From Candidatus Aenigmatarchaeota archaeon (lineage in GTDB: Archaea; Aenigmatarchaeota; Aenigmatarchaeia; GW2011-AR5), in the NCBI GenBank assembly GCA_016184005.1, contig JACPDL010000003.1:380974-444973 (forward strand): a stretch of 64,000 nucleotides of DNA, written 5' to 3'. Below the pieces are notes generated by a model. It was not told the origin of the DNA. It worked only from the letters and a program-made list of their open reading frames with translations, and ran no database searches. Position numbers and translations under genes: made by a program. This document shows, piece by piece, positions 7,933-54,237 of this stretch (position 1 is its first letter; each line of letters begins with the position of its first letter).

Positions 7933-8157
7933 ATGGAAAGACCGATAGATGTATTGAACAATGCAAAAGGCAAGCGTGTTCTGATAAAGCTCAAGAAAGG
8001 CACTGAGATTTCAGGCATACTGCACGCGATGGACTTGCACCTCAACATGTGGCTGGAAGGCGCGGAGCAGATAACTGAAGAGAAAAAGATAAAACTTGGA
8101 ACAATACTCGTTAGAGGCGACAACATCCTCTACGTCTCGCCTGAAAAAAGCGAATAA
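7933..8157 (+). CDS. Sm-like (LSm) archaeal protein.
   Basis: 74 aa. It carries Sm1/Sm2 motifs (VLIKLKKGTEISGILHAMDLHLNMWL...ILVRGDNILYV). It is adjacent to L37e, the classic archaeal Sm-L37e pairing. Confidence 0.8.
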   Translation: MERPIDVLNNAKGKRVLIKLKKGTEISGILHAMDLHLNMWLEGAEQITEEKKIKLGTILVRGDNILYVSPEKSE

Positions 8158-8177
8158 AGCCTTTTCTTAAACGAAAT

Positions 8178-8195
8178 GACGCACTTTAGTGCGTC
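8178..8195 (+). terminator. Perfect 7-bp hairpin (GACGCAC-TTTA-GTGCGTC) downstream of the Sm gene.
   Basis: Inverted repeat seen directly, 20 nt after the Sm stop. A T-rich tract lies nearby. Confidence 0.3.
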
Positions 8196-8264
8196 TAGTC
8201 ACTTGAAGAAAACCCCCGGGAAAAGAAAACTAAAAAGCTAAGAGAAAGAATGTTGAGATGACTT

Positions 8265-8510
8265 ATGTCGAAGGGAACACCGTCATTCGGACGCCATCAG
8301 AGAATAACGCACATAAGATGCCGACGCTGTGGTAGGCATAGTTATCATATACAGAAGAAACAATGCAGTGCATGTGCTTATCCAAGGCCGAAGATGCGCA
8401 AGGAAAGCTGGAAATGGAAGCCTGTAAACCGCGCAAAGAGAAAGTATCTAAGGCCAAAACACCAGAAGGTCAAGACAGCACGACAGGGCAGATGGGTCAA
8501 GAATAAGTAG
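8265..8510 (+). CDS. rpl37e: 50S ribosomal protein L37e.
   Basis: 81 aa. A C4 zinc ribbon (CRRCGRHSYH...CSACAY) is present, with the characteristic MSKGTPSFG N-terminus. Confidence 0.85.
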   Translation: MSKGTPSFGRHQRITHIRCRRCGRHSYHIQKKQCSACAYPRPKMRKESWKWKPVNRAKRKYLRPKHQKVKTARQGRWVKNK

Positions 8511-8560
8511 AGAACCTAGGTTCTCTTCCTTATCAACCTTCTCTCCTAATTAAAAATATT

Positions 8561-8761
8561 ATGCCAAAGATCTCAAAGGTTGACAAGCTGATTCTCGGGG
8601 CTAAAGAAAAAGCCAGGAAGAAGAAATGGATCCGCTATTGCCCGCAATGCAGGAGCACTGATGTAATTTTATGGGGCCAGCTGGTTGAGAATGGGTACTG
8701 GTACAAATGCAGGAAATGTGACTATCATGCCCCTTCTTTCCCGGAAAAGGCGAAAAATTAA
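8561..8761 (+). CDS. Small zinc-ribbon protein.
   Basis: 66 aa. Two CxxC pairs are present (CPQCRS...CRKCDY). Confidence 0.4.
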   Translation: MPKISKVDKLILGAKEKARKKKWIRYCPQCRSTDVILWGQLVENGYWYKCRKCDYHAPSFPEKAKN

Positions 8762-8803
8762 GCTTCAAAAGCATTTTAAACCGGGGAACACAAGATAGAA
8801 TTA

Positions 8804-8995
8804 ATGGAACCCCAGAACATCGAAAGGATGACTGCCATTTCTTTGCTGCTTATTGGGCTGACGCTGCTCTTTTTCGGTTTGAGCCTTTCAGGTTTATTTC
8901 AATTCCCGTTCTTCGGCATTCTTGTTCTTGTTACAGGAATTGTATCGCTGATAACCGCAGTTCTTCTCTTCTCGGACAGCGGCAAGCAAATGTGA
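8804..8995 (+). CDS. Small membrane protein.
   Basis: 63 aa with two predicted TM helices. Confidence 0.3.
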   Translation: MEPQNIERMTAISLLLIGLTLLFFGLSLSGLFQFPFFGILVLVTGIVSLITAVLLFSDSGKQM

Positions 8996-9036: not shown

Positions 9037-9250
9037 GGGCCTGTAGCTCAGAGCAAATCCCTTTTCTTGGAAGAAAATGTCTTTGCATGTCCCAAAAGAA
9101 CGTGCAGGGATATTACAAGAAGATTTGGGATTGCGAGCAACCTGGTAGTTGCTTTTGATGCAACAGCAAGCACTCGCCTCTATTTCTAGTTGAAAAAGAC
9201 TGGAAAGGGCAATAAGCGAGGAGTCGCGGGTTCGAATCCCGTCGGGCCCA
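9037..9250 (+). tRNA. tRNA, probably Lys (anticodon CUU), interrupted by three introns. Exons are about 9037-9051, 9141-9148, 9169-9181 and 9213-9250.
   Basis: The acceptor stem GGGCCTG/CGGGCCC and T arm GCGGG-TTCGAAT-CCCGT are seen directly. Joining the four exons gives a canonical 74-nt tRNA: GGGCCUG UA GCUC AGCCUGGUA GAGC A CUCGC CUCUUAA GCGAG GAGUC GCGGG UUCGAAU CCCGU CGGGCCC A. Intron 1 (9052-9140) has a perfect BHB central helix GCTC/GAGC. Intron 3 (9182-9212) has the central helix GCCT/GGGC plus a 9-bp distal helix, which places the 5' cut after 9181 and gives anticodon CUU. If the junction is shifted, CAU or CUA become possible. The intron 2 motif is weak. Confidence 0.7.
9054..9110 (+). 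repeat. 57-nt two-hairpin element (copy A), nested inside tRNA-Lys intron 1.
   Basis: The sequence is caaatccc-TTTTCTT-gg-AAGAAAA-...-stem-cccaaaagaac-stem'. It is about 85% identical to copies at 9685-9741 (+) and 43591-43651 (-). Stem positions differ in compensating ways, while the loop cccaaaagaac is conserved. Confidence 0.6.
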
Positions 9251-9255
9251 TACTT

Positions 9256-9687
9256 TCAATCTTCGCATATCCCGCACTTTGTCGGTGACTGTGAGCAGGA
9301 AGTCTTGTATTGCTCGCAGCACTGCTCGAGTGTCGTGCCGAGGTTTTCGTTGCCTGAGCAGAGTTCGCACAAGCCGTCGCATTTCACGTCCTCGGATGTT
9401 GCGCAGCACAGCTTGTAGAGGCATGTGAACTTGCCGATATCAGGATTATTGAGGTATTTGCATGCCGAGTAGAAATCATTGAAGTCTTTCTGGTACGTGA
9501 CCCTCCAGTCGCATTGCTGCTTCTTGTAAGCGTCGCATTTGCTGAAGAATATCTCGTTGGCTTTTGCTGCCGTCATGCTGCCGCTGGACTGCGAAAGAAA
9601 GAATGCTGAAAGAATAATGAGGACAAGTACAAGAACCACGACTAAAACTATCATGCGCATCGGCAGTTCAAGACCTTTCATAAACAA
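9256..9687 (-). CDS. Small Cys-rich membrane protein (P1), paralogous to the 31362..31712 gene.
   Basis: The likely start is the internal MKGLELP (about 9681). It has an N-terminal TM helix followed by an extracellular Cys-rich domain. The motif DFNDFYSACKYL matches NYQKFYSSCKYVL in its paralog, and the N-termini align (MKGLELP versus MKGIDLP). It ends with a TGA stop. Confidence 0.5.
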   Translation of the reverse strand: MFMKGLELPMRMIVLVVVLVLVLIILSAFFLSQSSGSMTAAKANEIFFSKCDAYKKQQCDWRVTYQKDFNDFYSACKYLNNPDIGKFTCLYKLCCATSEDVKCDGLCELCSGNENLGTTLEQCCEQYKTSCSQSPTKCGICED

Positions 9688-9741
9688 ATCCCTTTTCTTG
9701 TAAGAAAAGGTCTTTGTAAACCCTAAAAGAACTTACAAAGA
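9685..9741 (+). repeat. 57-nt two-hairpin element (copy B).
   Basis: Intergenic, abutting the start of the 9256..9687 gene. Same architecture as copy A in the tRNA intron. Confidence 0.55.
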
Positions 9742-9763
9742 CTTTTTATTTTATGATTCCTTA

Positions 9764-12700
9764 CTAAATACCTAATCGATCGAGTATAGCGTTTCTCTTG
9801 GCCCAGATGACTACGACGGCCGCGATGATTATTGCGATGACCAACGCAGCGAGTAGAGGGCTGTCACCTTCTGTTTTTCCCGGCGTGGTTAATACTGGTT
9901 CTTGGGCGTCTGCCAGCGATTTGCCCACTCTGAACAATCTTGCATCTGACGTGGCGCTGGCATCCCTGCTGTCTCTTGCAAATACAAAATATTCCTGCAG
10001 TCCGCTGCTGATAGTTGAGTATGTGCATGTAAACTCGCTGCCGCTGCCGAGCAGCCTGCACAATACGTTCCTGCATTCTATGTCGGGGCAAACGAATGCA
10101 TCGCTTATTGCATCACCGTTTGGATCTGTTAATTCTGTATAGAACCTAACGCTCTGACCTTCCTCCATTTCAGCAGGTTCATTTCTCACGCTTCGTATCT
10201 GGGGAGGGCGGTTGGCTATGTCGCTTATTATTGTCGTAAAGAGAGCGGATTTCTTTTGGCTCGTTTTCTGGCTTTCTATCGAAATGTTAAGCGTGTTCAC
10301 ATCTCCGGGCTTTCTTTCGATCGGCGTGACCTTGAGTATGATCCCTGCGCTTCCATTCGGCAGCAACTCTACGGTGTTTTTTGCAGCATTATCAATCATT
10401 ATTGCCGCGTTACCTGACTCAATGCGGAATGTGAACGTATCGGTTTCATCCCCGGTGTTGCGCAATATTCCTGAGTAATCAACTGCAGTGCCGGGGTTTG
10501 CTGTTCCGCTGGCGCGTATCGGGTCGAATTGCATAACTGTTTTGAATACACTCTCTCCTGTAAGAGGGTCCTTTATATATCCCGGAGCTGTGCATTCGCC
10601 CCATGTGCATGAAGAAGTGCAGCGCTGTATGCAGGTGACTACGCTGCCGTCTTTCTCTATTTCCTGTGTCTGTGTCTCGGCGTCACTGCATTGTGCTTCA
10701 CATTGGTCTTTCACACATGAAAATGTCATTTGCTGCTGCTGGCACGTGCATGATGCAGTGCATAAGCCGGTGCTGGGCCTTGAGCCGTATTTCTTGCCGC
10801 TGCACTCAAAGCCTGTCTGTGTGCATTGTTCGCCTCTGTACGCAGGATCGCATGTTTCTGTACGGTCAAGCATCCCGTCGCCGCAGCCCGGAACGCGCGC
10901 GGAAATATATTTGGCTTTCGGCTCAATAGCGATGCACGCCGGACTGTCAAAAACAAACCCTGTCACGTTATGCGCCCCGCCTTTCGTCGGGCACTTGAAT
11001 CCCGTCACGCCCTGCTGGCTTCCTATCTTTGTGCAGCTTTCTCCGTCTATGCTGCAGCCTATGCAATTAGCGTCCCTGCTGGCAGTGACGCTGCATATGA
11101 CGCTGTTGCTTATTATTTCTGCGCGCACGCTGGAAACATAAATGTCTTTTGAATAGACGTCAAAGAATCCCGGCTCTGTCTCGTCATGAACCTCTGAAGA
11201 GCAGTCGGATTGCAGCGAGCCGACTATCCTGCACTGGAACTGCCATCTTCCTTCCGCACTTGCATTGCTGCGCACTGCGAAGTTGCGCTGTTCTCCTGTT
11301 TTTATCGGAACGCACGCTCCCCTTGCTTTTGTGATCGCCTGCTCGGGGTTTGTGAAGTCGCATTCAGCATAACCATAGTAATCGATGTTGCCCGCGTTCT
11401 TTGTCTGCACAACTGCGTCTATGAAAGTTCCAAGCTCAACGCTTCGGGAAATTGTCACATTCTCTATCTGCAACGCACCGGAAAGGGATTTCCTGCAGTA
11501 ATTATTGAACATGCCGCTTGCAAGGTTCTTTGTTATCGTGAGCTGCCTTCTTGCTTCTGTCGTATTCTTTTTCCCTGGAAAATCTACGACAGCGTCAAGA
11601 TAATTCCCATACTTCGTGAGGTTCCTTATTATAGTTCCCAATGCGTCTGCGCAGGCGAGAAACTGCCCGCGTTCTTCAGCAGTCGAGGCAATTCTTATCC
11701 TTTCGTCAAGCACGTCCTTGCCTTTCTCGAAGTTTATCCTTGATTCAGTTATGTTCTCCCGCGTTTGTACAATGCCAGGCAGGTTTACAAACGGGCAGGA
11801 AAAGCTGTAGTTTGCAGATCTGATAAAGCCGGATGCCGTTTGCGCTGCAAGATAGTACACGCCTTTTGTGTCGACGCATCTTGTCTGGCAGGATGTTTGC
11901 CTGATATCACCGCATATGCAGGGTTTGTCGACGCCGCAGTCTCTTGTTTCAAAACCCTGGGTGCAGTCGCTTACTGTAGCGTTACGCGAGCAGACGTAGT
12001 AGCCTGTGAATGGCTGTGCGAGGGTTGCGTTGAAGTCCACGCCATAATCTATTTCTATTTCGCATCTTTTGTTGGGTCCTGTGCAGCGGAACGGAGACGA
12101 AGGGCAGTCGCTGCTGCACGCCGTTTCCTCGCCTATTTGGCAAACGTTGTCGCCGCACAGCGTTATTGTGTGCGTTATGAAAAATGGTATGTCGGCTGTC
12201 TGGGATCTCACCGACAAGACTACTGGGTTCGCGCCCTCGCTTGCAGTAAGGTTGGGCACTACCGTGAGCGTGACTGTTGACGTCTGGTCCGCATCAACAA
12301 CCACTGTCGGATCGCTTAATGACGCCTTCCAGCCGAACGGCGTCAACGCTGAAAGCACGAAAAGCGTCGGCGGGAAGCCGATAATATCCTTGTTCTTTAT
12401 GACTATCTCAAATATCTGCGTTCTTCCAGGAGGGCCTGTAGACATTAATGGCGTTACAGAAACATCAGGGAAGTTTCCGGGAAGTATCTCGTACTGGGCG
12501 CTTGCAATGCCGATTACCCTGAATCTCGGCTCGAACAAGCCTACGCTGATATTGAACAGCCCCGTTGTGTTCTGCACAAGGAATGTTGCCGTTGTGCCGT
12601 TGTTGAGCCTGATTGTTTGCGTGACAAAAGTCAGGTTAACATTCGGCGTCACGACCATGTTGAACTTTCTTGTTTCTCCTCCACGCAATGCTACCTGCGA

Positions 12701-13231
12701 AGGCACAACGATCCTCCAGCCCGGCGGCCCGATTACGCTTGTTGTGAAGGTGAGATCAAAGCTGTTTGGGTTCCTTGTAGTCACTTCGTATGTTTTTTCT
12801 TCCGGCGCAGGAACGCTGATCTTTGCCGGCGTAATGTTTATCTCGATGTTCCTTTTCAGGAATGTAGCAAAAAGAAGTATGACCGTTGGTTTTGTCTTCT
12901 GGTTTGTCTTGCAGTTCTGGTTGACATTGCACTGCTTTGTCATTGCTCCGCCTACGCCTTCCTCGCATGTGTTCTGGCAGCTCACCGGCGTGCCGTCAGG
13001 GCAGACCGCAGTCGTGAGCCCTGTAGGCTTACAGTTCAGGAAACTTGTTTCTGTCCTGCCGGAAGCGTCTATGCACGTTTGTGTGTCGCATATCTCGCTG
13101 GTGCCGCGGCATCCTGTGCCCGGGAAGCAGGCTCCCTGTGCAAATCCCAGGGCGGTGAAAACGCTGAGTGAAAGCGCAAGCATGATGAATGCTGCAAATA
13201 TAATATTTGTTTTGTTTTTTTCTTTATTCAT
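9764..13231 (-). CDS. Large Cys-rich surface protein (B1) with a signal peptide and a C-terminal TM anchor.
   Basis: 1155 aa. The N-terminus is MNKEKNKTNIIFAAFIMLALSLSVFTALGFAQG. The C-terminus (LLAALVIAIIIAAVVVIWAKRNA) is a TM anchor. Many Cys and N-x-S/T sequons are present. A ~230-aa domain (C-x-G-x-DKPC-x-CG...SC...C-x-D...YYL...F-x-CP) is shared with the 31709..36463 protein. It ends TAG followed by TAA. Confidence 0.6.
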   Translation of the reverse strand: MNKEKNKTNIIFAAFIMLALSLSVFTALGFAQGACFPGTGCRGTSEICDTQTCIDASGRTETSFLNCKPTGLTTAVCPDGTPVSCQNTCEEGVGGAMTKQCNVNQNCKTNQKTKPTVILLFATFLKRNIEINITPAKISVPAPEEKTYEVTTRNPNSFDLTFTTSVIGPPGWRIVVPSQVALRGGETRKFNMVVTPNVNLTFVTQTIRLNNGTTATFLVQNTTGLFNISVGLFEPRFRVIGIASAQYEILPGNFPDVSVTPLMSTGPPGRTQIFEIVIKNKDIIGFPPTLFVLSALTPFGWKASLSDPTVVVDADQTSTVTLTVVPNLTASEGANPVVLSVRSQTADIPFFITHTITLCGDNVCQIGEETACSSDCPSSPFRCTGPNKRCEIEIDYGVDFNATLAQPFTGYYVCSRNATVSDCTQGFETRDCGVDKPCICGDIRQTSCQTRCVDTKGVYYLAAQTASGFIRSANYSFSCPFVNLPGIVQTRENITESRINFEKGKDVLDERIRIASTAEERGQFLACADALGTIIRNLTKYGNYLDAVVDFPGKKNTTEARRQLTITKNLASGMFNNYCRKSLSGALQIENVTISRSVELGTFIDAVVQTKNAGNIDYYGYAECDFTNPEQAITKARGACVPIKTGEQRNFAVRSNASAEGRWQFQCRIVGSLQSDCSSEVHDETEPGFFDVYSKDIYVSSVRAEIISNSVICSVTASRDANCIGCSIDGESCTKIGSQQGVTGFKCPTKGGAHNVTGFVFDSPACIAIEPKAKYISARVPGCGDGMLDRTETCDPAYRGEQCTQTGFECSGKKYGSRPSTGLCTASCTCQQQQMTFSCVKDQCEAQCSDAETQTQEIEKDGSVVTCIQRCTSSCTWGECTAPGYIKDPLTGESVFKTVMQFDPIRASGTANPGTAVDYSGILRNTGDETDTFTFRIESGNAAIMIDNAAKNTVELLPNGSAGIILKVTPIERKPGDVNTLNISIESQKTSQKKSALFTTIISDIANRPPQIRSVRNEPAEMEEGQSVRFYTELTDPNGDAISDAFVCPDIECRNVLCRLLGSGSEFTCTYSTISSGLQEYFVFARDSRDASATSDARLFRVGKSLADAQEPVLTTPGKTEGDSPLLAALVIAIIIAAVVVIWAKRNAILDRLGI

Positions 13232-40968: not shown

Positions 40969-41733
40969 TTTACTATTTAATTCTTGTAAAGCAGAAAATG
41001 CTCTTTTATTATTCTTATTCCTTTCCTTCCAAAGTTGGAATTTTTTAAGATGTTTTGGATGACGAAAACCTATAAGCTGCATCCATTTCACAAGTTGTAA
41101 ATGGCCATAAATAGCGATTTCGTACTTGAGTATTTTCTTTTTTACTCTTGGATCATAATAATTATGTGTAAATCTACTTACACTAAAACCTTCTGATTCC
41201 AAGAAGTCAGCTATTTCATCTCTTAATATTCTTGACTTTGATACTCCATTTATTACAGGATAATATTGATAATTCTTGTATCTTCTTTTTAACGAGATGC
41301 ATAAATCTGTATCTGCAAATCCTTGTATAAAAGATTTCATCATTTCTTTACTATCTAAGAAAATTGTTGGTATTTTAATATTGTCTTTTCGCCCACTTGG
41401 AAGACCTATAATTTTCGTTAAAAATAAAACCAACGATTTAGATCGTAGTGTAAATCCATAAGTATTATCCCTTTCATGTAGTTTATTCTTAATCTTGGAG
41501 TTAAATAATTTGTAGAACAAATCTAACAAAACTTTATCATAAAATTCTCTTTCATCAAGCTGATTGCCGAGACACGTTACAGAATATTCATGTTTATCAA
41601 ATCTCGTATGTATATTTCCATCTCCTGCTAGAACACCACAAACATAGGCAAGATCTTTTGTAGATTCAATTGGAAGAAAGAAATCTTTTGATTTTTCCTG
41701 TCTAGTCAATTCTATAGTAGAAATATCTAACAT
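40966..41733 (-). CDS. Free-standing double-motif LAGLIDADG homing endonuclease.
   Basis: 255 aa. The motifs are LAYVCGVLAGDGNI and FIQGFADTDLCI. AT-rich. Its TAG stop overlaps the 3' end of tRNA-iMet by 3 nt. Confidence 0.65.
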   Translation of the reverse strand: MLDISTIELTRQEKSKDFFLPIESTKDLAYVCGVLAGDGNIHTRFDKHEYSVTCLGNQLDEREFYDKVLLDLFYKLFNSKIKNKLHERDNTYGFTLRSKSLVLFLTKIIGLPSGRKDNIKIPTIFLDSKEMMKSFIQGFADTDLCISLKRRYKNYQYYPVINGVSKSRILRDEIADFLESEGFSVSRFTHNYYDPRVKKKILKYEIAIYGHLQLVKWMQLIGFRHPKHLKKFQLWKERNKNNKRAFSALQELNSK

Positions 41734-41865: not shown

Positions 41866-43083
41866 ATGAACCTCCTCGAAAAAACGTTGCGGATTCTTGA
41901 GCAGCCGGCATGCGATAACTGCCTTGGTCGGCAATTTGGGCAGCTGCTTTCAGGTTTTACAAATAATGAAAGAGGGAAGCTGCTAAGAACAATTGCTGCA
42001 ATGTCCATAGACAACGAAGACTACAAAGGGGCTGCAGACATGTCGAATTTTCATGACTACGCCTTCCATAATCTCGAGATCAAAGCCAAAACAGCAGGAA
42101 AGCAGTGCTCTGTTTGCGGCGATATTTTCGCCCGCCTGGAAAAATACGCCGAGAAGATTGCAAAAAACAGGCAATATGGGTACAAAACATTTCTCATAGG
42201 CACGAGGCTTTCTTCCGGCCTCATTGAAAAGGAAGAAGCGCTATGGGAACGCGTTGGAATAGACTATTGCGAGCCGTTAAAGGCCGAGATAAACCGCGAA
42301 ATTGGAAAACTTGCAGAAGCAGCAACAAAGGCGCGGTTCAGCAGGAAGAACCCTGATGTGAACATGATTGTCAACTTTGGAAGCGGAAGGATAGAAATCA
42401 CTCCAAATCCTATTTTCATTTATGGCGAGTACCAGAAACTCAAGCGCGGCATACCCCAGACAAGATGGCCATCAAAGAAATACAGGACCAGCGTAGAGGA
42501 GATAATTGCAAAGCCGTTCATGCTGGCTACTCGCGGAAGAGGGCACAAACTTCATGGAATGGGCCGCGAAGATATAGATGCAAGATGCCTCGCATGGCGG
42601 CCGTTTGTTCTTGAAATTATAGGTCCGAAAAAGCGTGAAACTGCAATGAAAAAACTTGCCGGAAAAATAGGAAAAGAAGTCAAGGTCAGGAATTTGCGGC
42701 CGTCAAACATTGAAGAAGTCAGGCGAATAAAAGAAGCGCGCACCGACAAGACATACAGGGCTGTTGTGAAATGCAATAAACCAGCCAGCAAAGAGGATCT
42801 TGAGAAAATAAAGAGTATTGTGGGGGAAATAAGCCAAAGAACGCCCAAGCGGGTTTTGCACCGGCGCGCTGATCTGCGCCGCAAAAGGCACGTAAAACAA
42901 ATAAAATACAAGTACATGGACAAAAAGACATTCCTGCTTGAAATTCGTGGTGAAGCAGGCCTCTATATTAAAGAGCTCATAAGCGGCGACGGGGGAAGGA
43001 CACGGCCAAGCATATCCGAGCTGCTGAAGAATGAATGCACGTGCAAGGAACTGGACGTGATGAAAATACATGTCAAAGGCTGA
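41866..43083 (+). CDS. pus10: tRNA pseudouridine(54/55) synthase Pus10.
   Basis: 405 aa. An N-terminal Zn-ribbon (CDNC...CSVCGD) is present. The C-terminal catalytic region carries GREDIDARCLAWRPFVLEI and RTPKRVLHRRADLRRKRHV, blocks typical of archaeal Pus10. Confidence 0.65.
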   Translation: MNLLEKTLRILEQPACDNCLGRQFGQLLSGFTNNERGKLLRTIAAMSIDNEDYKGAADMSNFHDYAFHNLEIKAKTAGKQCSVCGDIFARLEKYAEKIAKNRQYGYKTFLIGTRLSSGLIEKEEALWERVGIDYCEPLKAEINREIGKLAEAATKARFSRKNPDVNMIVNFGSGRIEITPNPIFIYGEYQKLKRGIPQTRWPSKKYRTSVEEIIAKPFMLATRGRGHKLHGMGREDIDARCLAWRPFVLEIIGPKKRETAMKKLAGKIGKEVKVRNLRPSNIEEVRRIKEARTDKTYRAVVKCNKPASKEDLEKIKSIVGEISQRTPKRVLHRRADLRRKRHVKQIKYKYMDKKTFLLEIRGEAGLYIKELISGDGGRTRPSISELLKNECTCKELDVMKIHVKG

Positions 43084-43276: not shown

Positions 43277-43561
43277 ATGGTGCGAAAATCTTACGGAAAG
43301 ATGAGAAAATCAAGGAACAGGCTGTCAGGCAAGAAAGCAAGCGGCATAGGGTCTTACATAAGAAAGTTCTCTCCTGGCGATGCAGTACATGTGGATTTCC
43401 TGCCAAGCTCAAAGCTCCCGCACACGCGTTTCCAGGGAGCAACAGGAAAGATAATCGAGAAAAGAGGCAGGAGCTACATGGTTCAGATCACAGACCATGA
43501 TGCGACGAAGACTCTTTTCCTGAGGCCAGAGCATCTCAAGCCGCAAAAAAATAAAAACTGA
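43277..43561 (+). CDS. rpl21e: 50S ribosomal protein L21e.
   Basis: 94 aa. The sequence MVRKSYGKMRKSRNRLS...FSPGDAVHVDFLPS...RFQGATGKIIEKRGRSYMVQI is typical L21e. Confidence 0.85.
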   Translation: MVRKSYGKMRKSRNRLSGKKASGIGSYIRKFSPGDAVHVDFLPSSKLPHTRFQGATGKIIEKRGRSYMVQITDHDATKTLFLRPEHLKPQKNKN

Positions 43562-43590: not shown

Positions 43591-43651
43591 GAGGTCTTTG
43601 TTTTCTTTGGGACATACAAAGACCTTTCTTTTCTGAAAAGAAAGGGATTTG
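43591..43651 (-). repeat. 57-nt two-hairpin element (copy C), between rpl21e and rpoF.
   Basis: The reverse complement reads caaatccc-TTTCTTTT-cag-AAAAGAAA-gGTCTTTGT-atgtcccaaagaaa-ACAAAGACc. It has the same architecture as copies A and B, with compensating stem changes. Confidence 0.55.
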
Positions 43652-43984
43652 TTTATGGAACTGATCGAAGAAGAGGACATAACTGTGCCGGAAGCGAAAA
43701 GGATACTTGAGGAAAGGAAGGGAGAAAGGGATCTTGTTTACGAGCAGAAGATATGCCTGGAATACCTGGAAAAGGTGCCAAAGCTCACACAGGCTCAGCT
43801 GAAAAACATAATTGAAGATCTGGGCAAAATAGCAATCCTGAAGCCGCGATACATAGCCCTGATAATCAACATACTTCCTGACACAGATGAGGAAGTCGAG
43901 ATGCTTTTTTCCAAGGAAAGAACAAACCTGAAGAAAGAGGAAATCAAGCAGATTGTAGAGATCGTCAAGAAATACAAGAAATAA
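43649..43984 (+). CDS. rpoF: DNA-directed RNA polymerase subunit F (Rpo4).
   Basis: 111 aa with a TTG start. The pattern V-x-EA...YEQ...L-x-YL-x-K...ILP...IV-x-KY matches archaeal RpoF. The rpl21e-rpoF-DUF655 order is conserved in archaea. Confidence 0.7.
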   Translation: MFMELIEEEDITVPEAKRILEERKGERDLVYEQKICLEYLEKVPKLTQAQLKNIIEDLGKIAILKPRYIALIINILPDTDEEVEMLFSKERTNLKKEEIKQIVEIVKKYKK

Positions 43985-54113: not shown

Positions 54114-54237
54114 TGCTCTCGGCGGGATTTGAACCCGCGTCCGCGGCGATCTCCAGTTTTTCCCCGAGGGCTTTTGCGCCTCAGCGGAAAAGGGCTCTGA
54201 GAGGCCACTATCCTTGACCGGGCTAGACTACGAGAGC
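54114..54237 (-). tRNA. tRNA-Glu (anticodon CUC) with a 49-nt canonical 37/38 intron (54149-54197).
   Basis: The acceptor stem is GCTCTCG/CGAGAGC with discriminator A. The D arm is GTCT-AGCCCGGTCAA-GGAT. The anticodon stem is GTGGC/GCCGC and the loop is CUCUCA|C. The T arm is GCGGG-TTCAAAT-CCCGC. The intron's BHB central helix is CTCT/GGAG with bulges CA|G and AT|C. Confidence 0.75.

Follow-up and report, generated by a model that had tools for sequence, protein, structure and literature searches.

What is a short structured repeat doing inside a tRNA intron when nearly the same sequence, turned around, also stands beside the start codons of protein genes? The question is raised by a 64,000-nt stretch of DNA from Candidatus Aenigmatarchaeota archaeon (contig JACPDL010000003.1, positions 380,974 to 444,973; referred to below, at its full length, as the window), which holds three copies of such an element. 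An earlier note, made from the sequence alone, had placed one copy in a tRNA intron, one at the start of a surface-protein gene and one between rpl21e and rpoF, and had read each as a pair of hairpins kept by compensatory changes. We show that the repeats belong to a phylum-wide family of ~55-60-nt structured elements, previously undescribed. Its core is one long hairpin followed by a strand that mirrors it, a pattern that fits a triple helix, and its copies are oriented one way in tRNA genes and the other way at start codons.

Three window copies and a phylum-wide family

A covariance model built from 67 relatives and run with filters off identified exactly three copies in the window, copy 3 at 68.2, copy 2 at 67.7 and copy 1 at 60.6 bits. 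The next-best matches, in the range of 17-19 bits and none above 19.4, were the reverse strands of copies 2 and 3. The 5' box CAAATCCCTTTTCTT has perfect matches at 9054 and 9685 and one with two mismatches at 43637-43651 on the reverse strand. When up to three mismatches are allowed, it matches the window 12 times against 3.9 expected, a count reached by none of 100 shuffles, and the second box matches four times against 0.74 expected. A scan that used neither box, but only a pyrimidine hairpin followed by a mirror purine run, also found exactly three copies, each with a spacing of 16 nt, against 0.4 in shuffled sequence. Box matches, covariance model and motif-free scan thus agree on the three places that the earlier note had named. 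Two extra matches of the motif-free scan, near 41362 and 28643 on the reverse strand, are without the conserved boxes, have spacings of 54 and 40 nt and are probably due to chance.

The family reaches far beyond this genome. A pattern scan of GTDB with one genome per species listed at least 109 stretches, of which about 30 are bacterial chance matches without the rest of the motif, and a differently anchored pattern applied to metagenome contigs listed at least 120, including 95 well-formed copies. In the GTDB scan the element is present in at least 33 species-level archaeal metagenome-assembled genomes (MAGs) from many habitats. Most are Ca. Aenigmatarchaeota, and a few are labelled Woese-, Nano-, Alti- or Hydrothermarchaeota. 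At least 75 well-formed copies are found in GTDB genomes, and the covariance model recognises 84 copies in the listed loci, some of which break the seed pattern. Viral contigs gave five pattern matches, none with the rest of the motif. A search with 4227 Rfam models at gathering and at permissive thresholds returned no family for the element; only tRNA matches reach threshold, and the best non-tRNA match over the element is far below it, for example PyrR with 20.8 against 54. No description of the element was found in the literature on Aenigmatarchaeota introns, DPANN tRNA introns and archaeal triple helices.

Homopurine and homopyrimidine stems in an AT-rich genome might suggest that the copies resemble each other only as low-complexity sequence, which the earlier note had named as the outcome that would refute it. 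There is practically no chance that this is so. It is contradicted by the shuffle controls, by scores of 60-68 bits over a background of at most 19, by fold z-scores that range overall from -2.6 to -4.9 and by covariation among many stem types. The search of relatives with the covariance model found structural covariation, and about 180 further copies bear out the view that the compensatory changes reflect selection on RNA structure.

An extended hairpin and its mirror strand

The best-supported helix of the element is absent from the earlier model. In RNAalifold predictions for 14 full D-loop introns, the 5' box pairs with GGTCTTTG after hairpin 1, and the nucleotide ahead of the box pairs with the one that follows GTCTTTG, closing a helix around that hairpin. 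The core consists of a single extended hairpin, N-CAAA-[UC]-CC-Y(n)...R(n)-GG-[UC]-UUUG-N'. Its lower stem has 5 bp (N-CAAA/UUUG-N'), its upper stem (CC-U(n)CU(m)/A(m)GA(n)-GG) sets pyrimidines against purines, and an invariant 2x2 internal loop separates the two. Hairpin length ranges from 13 to 18 levels. Across the 84-copy alignment the extended hairpin is 98.9% paired, compared with 38-63% for slid partners, and the closing pair is AU in 38 copies, GC in 23, UA in 7, CG in 5, GU or UG in 4 and something else in 4. All 95 metagenome copies have a Watson-Crick closing pair, and their lower stem covaries (CAAA/TTTG 45, CCAA/TTGG 27, TCAA/TTGA 5 and AAAA/TTTT 3, with ACAA/TTGT, CTAA/TTAG, GAAA/TTTC and TAAA/TTTA as further pairs). 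The internal loop is UC/UC when read in tRNA sense; the other strand has tandem GA/GA. The hairpin of copy 1 contains a single C.U mismatch (9061/9078).

The second hairpin described earlier does exist, but it is a peripheral and optional addition to a core formed by the extended hairpin and the mirror strand. In this helix, called P3 here, GTCTTTG-N'-xxx faces xxx-N''-CAAAGAC. Its pairing is real, and its stems are longer than first reported, with 11 pairs in copy 1, four of them G.U wobbles, an arrangement that holds only in tRNA sense. P3 is strong in D-loop introns as a class (9-11 pairs, many of them U.G wobbles valid only in tRNA sense) and is present in most start-codon copies, its strands being GTCTTTGTAA/TTACAAAGAC in copy 2 and GGTCTTTGT/ACAAAGACC in copy 3. 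It is missing from many T-loop introns and is therefore optional. P3 competes with the lower stem for the GGTCTTTG strand, and in long introns the 5' box may pair instead with a 3'-terminal GGGATT(T)G, making the inner helix of a bulge-helix-bulge (BHB) motif. This competition and the alternative partner of the 5' box imply that the element has alternative conformations.

Sixteen nucleotides past the purine strand of the upper stem, an interval that reads GG-TCTTTG-N', four nucleotides and CCC, there is a purine run that mirrors the stem. Where the stem is T(n)CT(m)/A(m)GA(n), the run is A(n)GA(m), which is neither a copy nor a complement. This rule holds in 68 of 75 GTDB copies and in 84 of 95 metagenome copies, in which the misses are mostly off by one and the start-codon copies conform in 19 of 19 cases. 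The mirror is exact in 22 of 28 distinct type combinations; shuffles averaged 6.5 and peaked at 15, and none of 10,000 reached the observed value. A direct-repeat reading fits just 8 of the 28. The types found include T3CT2, T4CT2, T3CT3, T3CT4 (copy 3, mirrored by A3GA4), T4CT3, T4CT4, T2CT3, T2CT4, T3CT2CT2 and T4 to T7. The rule persists across large insertions between hairpin and run (loci L013, L039, L085 and L089). Two other explanations of the distal box were rejected. Watson-Crick pairing, whether to GTCTTTG or to hairpin 1, does not work because the box changes together with the hairpin and GTCTTTG is fixed, and a direct repeat accounts for symmetric types only.

Second introns of the same tRNAs (L101, L034 and L093) keep the hairpin and the mirror run and lack the conserved boxes, with ACTTTTCTTGAAAGAAAAGT...AAAAGAAC and ACTTTTTGGAAAAAAGT...AAAAAGA as stripped-down examples. 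The unit of hairpin and mirror may be older or more widespread than the full element.

The mirror pattern is impossible by Watson-Crick pairing and is exactly what a major-groove triple helix requires, and the three-strand covariation fits an intramolecular triple helix of this kind. Over more than 15 stem types the third strand tracks the purine strand in register and polarity. In tRNA-sense RNA it would be an antiparallel purine strand (A.A-U, G.G-C); the complementary RNA would use a parallel pyrimidine strand (U.A-U, with one C+.G-C). Both geometries are recognised classes of RNA triplex (PMC13541005). The linker plus CCC spans 7-8 nt, close to the 9 levels taken up together by the lower stem, the internal loop and the CC/GG pairs, which means that the tail could run back along the groove and might enter it at the internal loop.

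Genomic setting and orientation

Genes for tRNAs harbour about two thirds of the copies, as BHB introns or 3' trailers, and about a quarter lie antisense at start codons. Of the 87 copies in the GTDB set, 16 are in D-loops, about 22 are in T-loops or at the tRNA 3' end, and about 22 more are in anticodon loops, at other tRNA positions or 2-4 nt after the discriminator. Every tRNA copy is in tRNA sense, and about 62 copies of this orientation stand against 25 that are antisense at an ATG. The 25 lie beside 'CAT' with 1-3, mostly 2, nt between, and the open reading frames (ORFs) that follow have 82-435 codons. The metagenome set comprises 55 tRNA copies, 19 start copies with a spacing of 0-2 nt and 20 copies left unassigned by regular expressions, most of which are, by eye, T-loop variants or start sites near contig ends. 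In intron copies the hairpin base adjoins the 5' splice bulge, and trailer copies begin 2-4 nt past the 3' end of the tRNA. All invariant positions, including the unpaired ones, are exact complements between the tRNA and start classes. The earlier note had missed this rule of orientation and context and had not chosen between a non-coding RNA, a processing signal and a mobile element.

Start-class genes belong mostly to the core machinery of the cell. Those identified with Pfam encode L14, S17, L19e (twice), S3Ae (twice), aEF-1beta, Spt5, an RNase PH exosome subunit, ScpA (twice) and RpoF, and S6e, RFC and AspRS were recognised by eye. Most have a same-strand gene that ends 49-194 nt upstream. 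Several sites recur at orthologous genes in different MAGs, including those for RpoF, L19e, S3Ae, ScpA, an MBL-fold protein and a Cys-rich protein, and the element-rpoF junction of copy 3 has an ortholog in locus L050. No start-class gene begins with GTG or TTG, and all begin with ATG except one. The exception is the rpoF ortholog in L050 (844-906, MAG CAYJVV), which has ATC where the window has ATG, representing either a non-canonical start or a sequencing or assembly variant. The other genes of the window (34 long ORFs) use two start modes, a TATA-like box ~25-30 nt before the ATG (leaderless) or GGTGA(T) 3-5 nt before it. Genes preceded by the element use a third, with neither a Shine-Dalgarno (SD) sequence (GGTGAT) nor a TATA box at -27. 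An SD reading of GGGAU was rejected, since it is a poor match to GGUGAU, lies at too great a distance from the AUG and is sequestered within the hairpin. Mimicry of an RNase Z or RNase P minihelix and a K-turn found no support, given a helix of variable length, no 3-nt bulge and a CCA at an unsuitable distance.

The position of the start copies raises the possibility that the element acts as DNA, whether as the site of a dimeric protein on the quasi-palindrome CAAA-NN-CC...GG-NN-TTTG, as an H-DNA mirror repeat or as a promoter of leaderless genes. They fill -2 to -60, where leaderless promoters sit in this genome, and a strand-symmetric constraint would explain why the hairpin, the mirror rule and the invariant bases are kept in both orientations. 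The asymmetry between strands in fold energy is also weak; in tests of fold energy and G.U content the tRNA class was not significant and the start class was marginal (p=0.07), a result partly contradicted by wobble counts in P3. However, the -27 region of start-class genes reads CCTTT(T)C, unlike TA-rich TATA boxes, and a promoter in the tRNA genes would have the wrong orientation and fire antisense into the tRNA, and on these grounds a promoter was rejected as the main explanation of start-class copies. Mirror tracts of 6-9 bp are short for H-DNA, the P3 G.U wobbles of D-loop introns pair only in tRNA-sense RNA, and a constant position relative to splice bulges and the AUG speaks for a function at the RNA level. 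We regard a role as DNA as quite improbable.

Copy 1 does lie inside a tRNA intron, in a tRNA-Met(CAT) gene with three introns (Table 1). ARAGORN reports no tRNAs in the raw window, but the 74-mer obtained by removing the three predicted introns by hand is called tRNA-Met(cat) with a normal cloverleaf. Standard tRNA finders will under-call tRNAs in such genomes. Intron removal restores a canonical tRNA for copy 1 only, as copies 2 and 3 are outside tRNA genes, and the suspected link to BHB processing accordingly holds for copy 1, with GCUC/GAGC as the central helix. The BHB motif is defined as a 4-bp helix flanked by two 3-nt bulges at the exon-intron junctions (PMC4090602). The junctions of intron 1 fit this definition, with a weak outer helix. 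In the minimum free energy (MFE) fold of the intron (-40.9 kcal/mol, z -3.9), GCUC and GAGC are paired and AGA is bulged, and both predicted cuts fall 2 nt 3' of their helix strand, at the junction needed for a canonical D-loop. The 3' bulge AAC is deduced from the junction, since the MFE fold pairs two of its bases weakly, and with the weak outer helix this makes the motif a relaxed one. T-loop members such as L037 have, by eye, a canonical TTCA/TGAA helix with bulges AAG and AAT.

The remainder of intron 1 was assigned from an alignment of 14 D-loop introns, the MFE fold and the splice junction. It includes an extra linker, ATATTACAAGAAGA, that is conserved in D-loop introns only (window 9112-9123, L029, L034, L072, L082, L093, L101 and L026). 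CAAGAAG in this linker is the Watson-Crick complement of the 5' strand of hairpin 1 and gives a rod-like alternative MFE fold. A second tRNA gene of the window (54114-54237, reverse strand, Rfam 47 bits) spans ~124 nt, indicating that it also has an intron, and is without the element. The segment immediately before the split tRNA-Met gene (7933-8995, forward strand) encodes an LSm protein, ribosomal protein L37e, a Zn-ribbon protein and a small membrane protein.

Copy 2 had been placed at the start of a surface-protein gene. It abuts instead the ATG of a gene for a 141-aa Cys-rich protein and lies ~20 nt downstream of the stop of the surface-protein gene. A surface protein and a small Cys-rich membrane protein with the element between them are also found in MAG locus L089. 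Copy 3 was correctly located between rpl21e and rpoF, as the Pfam matches PF01157 and PF03874 show, and Pus10 (41866-43083) is encoded upstream of rpl21e and copy 3. Relative to their genes, copies 2 and 3 occupy the opposite strand, and each stops 3 nt short of the ATG. Read in mRNA sense, they present the mirror strand, the hairpin and then GGGAUUUG-UUU-AUG, and the leader folds have energies of -22.3 kcal/mol (z -3.45) for copy 2 and -27.3 kcal/mol (z -2.6) for copy 3.

Table 1. Coordinates of the element copies, the split tRNA gene and adjoining genes in the window.
Feature	Position	Strand	Details and basis
Copy 1, extended hairpin	9053-9086	+	G-CAAA-[TC]-CC-TTTTCTT / loop / AAGAAAA-TG-[TC]-TTTG-C; covariance model and family-wide pair counts
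Copy 1, linker and mirror run	9087-9101	+	linker ATGT, CCC, mirror (third-strand) run AAAAGAA 9094-9100, C; mirror rule T4CT2 <-> A4GA2
Copy 1, P3 3' strand	9101-9111	+	CGTGCAGGGAT; pairs with GTCTTTGCATG at 9079-9089
Copy 2	9684-9742	+	hairpin 9684-9717, linker AAAC, CCT, mirror run AAAAGAA 9725-9731, P3 3' strand TTACAAAGAC 9733-9742
Copy 3	43593-43652	-	hairpin 43652-43616, linker ATGT, CCC, mirror run AAAGAAAA 43608-43601, P3 3' strand ACAAAGACC 43601-43593
tRNA-Met(CAT) gene, three introns	9037-9250	+	Rfam tRNA 33 bits with 116-nt (D-loop) and 35-nt insertions
tRNA-Met exons	9037-9051, 9141-9148, 9169-9180, 9212-9250	+	predicted splicing
tRNA-Met introns	9052-9140, 9149-9168, 9181-9211	+	predicted; 89 nt (D-loop, holds copy 1), 20 nt, 31 nt (anticodon loop)
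BHB 5' half, intron 1	9046-9052	+	helix strand GCTC 9046-9049, 3-nt bulge AGA 9050-9052; predicted cleavage after G9051
BHB 3' half, intron 1	9135-9141	+	helix strand GAGC 9135-9138, bulge AAC 9139-9141; predicted cleavage after A9140
Intron 1, remainder	9112-9141	+	D-loop-intron linker ATTACAAGAAGA 9112-9123; GGGATTGC 9127-9134 pairs with 5' box as inner BHB helix
141-aa Cys-rich membrane protein gene, behind copy 2	9256-9681	-	ATG 9681-9679; no Pfam match; ORF lists
1155-aa Cys-rich surface protein gene	9764-13231	-	stop ~20 nt from copy 2; only marginal Ig-like Pfam matches
rpl21e	43277-43561		ends 93 nt before rpoF ATG; Pfam PF01157
rpoF (Rpb4-type RNA polymerase subunit), behind copy 3	43655-43984	+	ATG at 43655; Pfam PF03874

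Spread, possible function and known systems

Copies within one genome tend to resemble each other. Near-identical T-loop introns occur in four different tRNAs in each of two MAGs, CAZROS (L019, L025, L067 and L102) and JACQIB (L011, L037, L057 and L098), and D-loop introns are alike across different tRNAs. The variable linker is more similar within than between genomes in the tRNA class (0.77 vs 0.67) and in the start class (0.62 vs 0.52), and similarity between the two classes is 0.65 within a genome vs 0.58 between genomes (p=0.06). This likeness could equally result from gene conversion or from co-evolution with a genome-specific partner. It would also be expected of a selfish, proliferating family of BHB introns of the kind for which the Thermoproteales provide a precedent (PMC4090602), with a conserved core that is whatever its spreading mechanism needs and with start-codon copies that are old insertions, tolerated or co-opted. 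The same explanation is favoured by a 16-nt direct repeat around a trailer copy and by the identity of the 5' box with the 3' half of the T-arm (TTCAAATCCC).

However, a selfish origin accounts poorly for a core kept across at least 33 species-level genomes from many habitats, and copies are lacking in viral contigs. Start copies are found at orthologous genes, on the same side and strand and 0-2 nt from the ATG, in 44 of 44 cases, a result that random or tolerated insertion cannot give. By eye, target-site duplications are not consistent and start copies carry no terminal inverted repeats, and the element has no associated transposase. Since either orientation keeps the P1 helix, splicing viability alone leaves the tRNA sense of 62 of 62 copies unexplained. 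Selfish spread is therefore unlikely as the overall explanation. The trailer copy with the direct repeat (L049 4575-4700, MAG JACPJX) is flanked by GGCAGGCGCATTACAA, which takes in the tRNA 3' end, and after the repeat comes an apparent deleted element (CAAGGTCTTG), giving a likeness to an att site or a target duplication; this 8-kb locus has four copies.

The explanation that we favour, though tentatively, is an antisense partnership, suggested by the sequences of the two classes, in which tRNA processing would release small RNAs that pair with complementary mRNA leaders. The splicing endonuclease in the case of introns, and RNase Z in the case of trailers, would release tRNA-sense copies as compact small RNAs, and the opposite-strand copies would be their docking sites in mRNA leaders. 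Pairing would start at complementary single-stranded tails or loops (CCCAAAGAAC vs GUUCUUUGGG) and extend up to the AUG. It would alter how transcripts for ribosomal proteins, RNA polymerase subunit F, Spt5, EF-1beta, the exosome and others are translated or how stable they are, thereby linking expression of those genes to the output of tRNA genes. Stem type (n,m), which varies, would serve as an address, and the triplex fold would stabilise and present each RNA.

Only under an antisense partnership do the strict split in orientation and the exactly complementary invariant positions become a requirement and not an accident. It is also favoured by the lack of SD sequence and TATA box at start-class genes, by start sites kept at orthologous genes and by linkers that are slightly more alike between the classes within a genome. 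The tRNA and start classes are reverse complements, which provides extended complementarity between intron and mRNA. In cofolding, intron 1 and the leader of the same stem type (c2) gain -14.2 kcal/mol (shuffled mean -3.5, best -8.4), and intron 1 with the leader of another type (c3) gains -0.1 kcal/mol, a contrast which suggests that stem type could act as an address. Free tRNA introns of yeast regulate complementary mRNAs (10.1101/2025.11.19.689297), and the box C/D RNA of tRNA-Trp is a precedent for an RNA nested in a tRNA intron (PMC4090602).

Several results weigh against antisense partnership. Antisense pairing has no need of mirror covariation, yet both orientations keep it; this argues that each copy is under selection in cis, which a model with trans pairing only leaves unexplained. 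Stem types match within genomes in 8 of 16 cases vs 6.7 expected (p=0.28, with genomes sampled in part among at least 109 listed stretches), and the linker similarity between classes is marginal and could also come from gene conversion. Both partner RNAs are strongly self-folded, the near-identical introns in four tRNAs of CAZROS and JACQIB indicate proliferation of a kind typical of selfish spread or concerted evolution, and the strand-asymmetry tests are ambiguous for the start class. Furthermore, an AUG-only, SD-less start beside a hairpin is equally suited to processing into leaderless mRNAs.

Such processing is part of an alternative in which the element is a punctuation or end-protection signal in cis, with a nuclease cutting at the hairpin base and no pairing in trans. 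At protein genes, internal cistrons without an SD sequence would become leaderless mRNAs, and the upstream mRNA would acquire a triplex-capped 3' end; in tRNA genes the hairpin would be the intron-side helix beside the 5' splice bulge. The tRNA punctuation of mitochondrial transcripts is an analogous form of RNA processing. The hairpin duplex is near-identical in both orientations, its lower and upper stems being palindromic at the duplex level. The hairpin base is everywhere 0-3 nt from the boundary of its cargo, which is a tRNA exon, the 3' end of a tRNA or the start of an ORF, and the tail points away from the cargo. The usual start spacing of 2 nt corresponds to one paired and one free nucleotide before the AUG. 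The starts, ATG in all cases except one ATC and none with an SD sequence, occur in an organism whose genes are otherwise leaderless or GGTGAT-led, and the copies are mostly between cistrons in ribosomal protein operons. Triple helices that protect RNA ends are established (PMC13541005).

Nevertheless, the two orientations yield complementary and not identical RNAs (UC/UC vs GA/GA, and a purine vs a pyrimidine third strand). It is unlikely that a single protein or nuclease recognises both, and if the two classes had separate functions, their sequences should have diverged. We know of no candidate nuclease that would cut at the hairpin base. The range of 13-18 levels in hairpin length argues against a ruler enzyme such as RNase Z, and copies with a spacing of 0-1 nt would lose part of the AUG. 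In sum, punctuation in cis appears somewhat unlikely.

Archaeal tRNA introns are usually seen as featureless spacers set by their BHB junctions, and DPANN archaea as too reduced for elaborate RNA regulation. A phylum-wide core that is carried in tRNA introns and trailers, and is flipped at the starts of core genes without a ribosome-binding signal, runs against both views. The family offers a reason for the persistence of multi-intron tRNAs in tiny genomes and a directly testable case of tRNA-intron function in Archaea. It allows both triplex chemistries to be compared on complementary strands of one natural system, and it is a practical marker for heavily split tRNA genes that standard finders miss. 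If antisense partnership were true, synthesis of the translation and transcription machinery would be tied to tRNA output through triplex small RNAs and leaders. The proposed circuit, in which dozens of tRNA introns and trailers per genome would form a small-RNA family docking on reverse-complement triplex leaders at the AUG, is on balance doubtful. If the triplexes are real, the tRNA-sense copies would be the first long natural purine-type (A.A-U/G.G-C) RNA triplex and their complements the first archaeal U.A-U/C+.G-C triplex.

Among known systems, BHB tRNA introns are the closest to copy 1 and most family members, which share with them the D-, T- and anticodon-loop positions, the 4-bp central helix and the canonical spliced tRNA. 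Known BHB introns have a median length of 12-25 nt, and the junction motif is sufficient for them, the rest being unconserved (PMC4090602, where Marck & Grosjean 2003 and Sugahara 2007/2008 are reviewed). The element differs in having a ~55-nt core kept phylum-wide and in being present outside tRNA genes too. In the Thermoproteales, very similar introns are found in different isoacceptor tRNAs at canonical and non-canonical sites, as far as the reviewing article relates (Fujishima et al. 2010, in PMC4090602). The near-identical introns across the tRNAs of CAZROS and of JACQIB are a trait shared with them. The element is set apart by its occurrence in DPANN, by a core kept between distant species, by three-strand covariation and by reverse-complement copies at start codons. 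Its similarity is not confined to tRNA introns, and 44 start-codon copies share the structured core.

The predicted triplex can be compared with those of the MALAT1/PAN ENE, telomerase RNA, SAM-II and preQ1-II (PMC13541005), which have the same order of strands as the element in mRNA sense, namely Hoogsteen U-rich, Watson-Crick U-rich and A-rich. The predicted U.A-U triples with one C+.G-C and the run length of 6-9 are within the known range, and the A-rich strand lies beside the translation start, as in riboswitch triplexes that sequester the SD sequence. Unlike ENE/MALAT1, the element has no U-rich internal loop clamping an A-rich tract or poly(A) tail, it has no H-type pseudoknot, and it does not fit the definition of an ENE. 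Its third strand would fold back along the hairpin past the 2x2 internal loop, unlike in known triplex RNAs. To our knowledge there is no natural purine-type triplex of the length that the tRNA-sense copies would need.

The free tRNA introns of yeast (fitRNAs) also have long intron-mRNA complementarity, which in the work as cited lies in ORFs and is idiosyncratic to each intron (Nostramo et al. 2025, in 10.1101/2025.11.19.689297). In the element, one module is repeated in dozens of introns and trailers, and its complement is in leaders that abut the AUG. Regulation by the element is, in contrast to the fitRNAs, a proposal. Functional RNAs released by tRNA processing also include tRNA-linked small RNAs in Nanoarchaeum and mascRNA/MALAT1. 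Like the box C/D RNA of tRNA-Trp (PMC4090602), the element is a structured RNA that rides on tRNA transcription and would be excised by the enzymes of tRNA processing, but it has many copies per genome and not one. No box C (RUGAUGA) or box D (CUGA) was seen in the element sequences, and no snoRNA match came near threshold in the Rfam scans. MITE and REP repeats are likewise short, hairpin-forming, multicopy and often located between cistrons. The element differs from these in its strict position and orientation, in its orthologous sites, in start copies that lack a second terminal repeat and, by eye, in having no consistent duplications except the 16-nt repeat in L049. It is possible, if rather less than probable, that the family is a categorically new regulatory system; otherwise it would be kin to BHB tRNA introns and to proliferating intron families.

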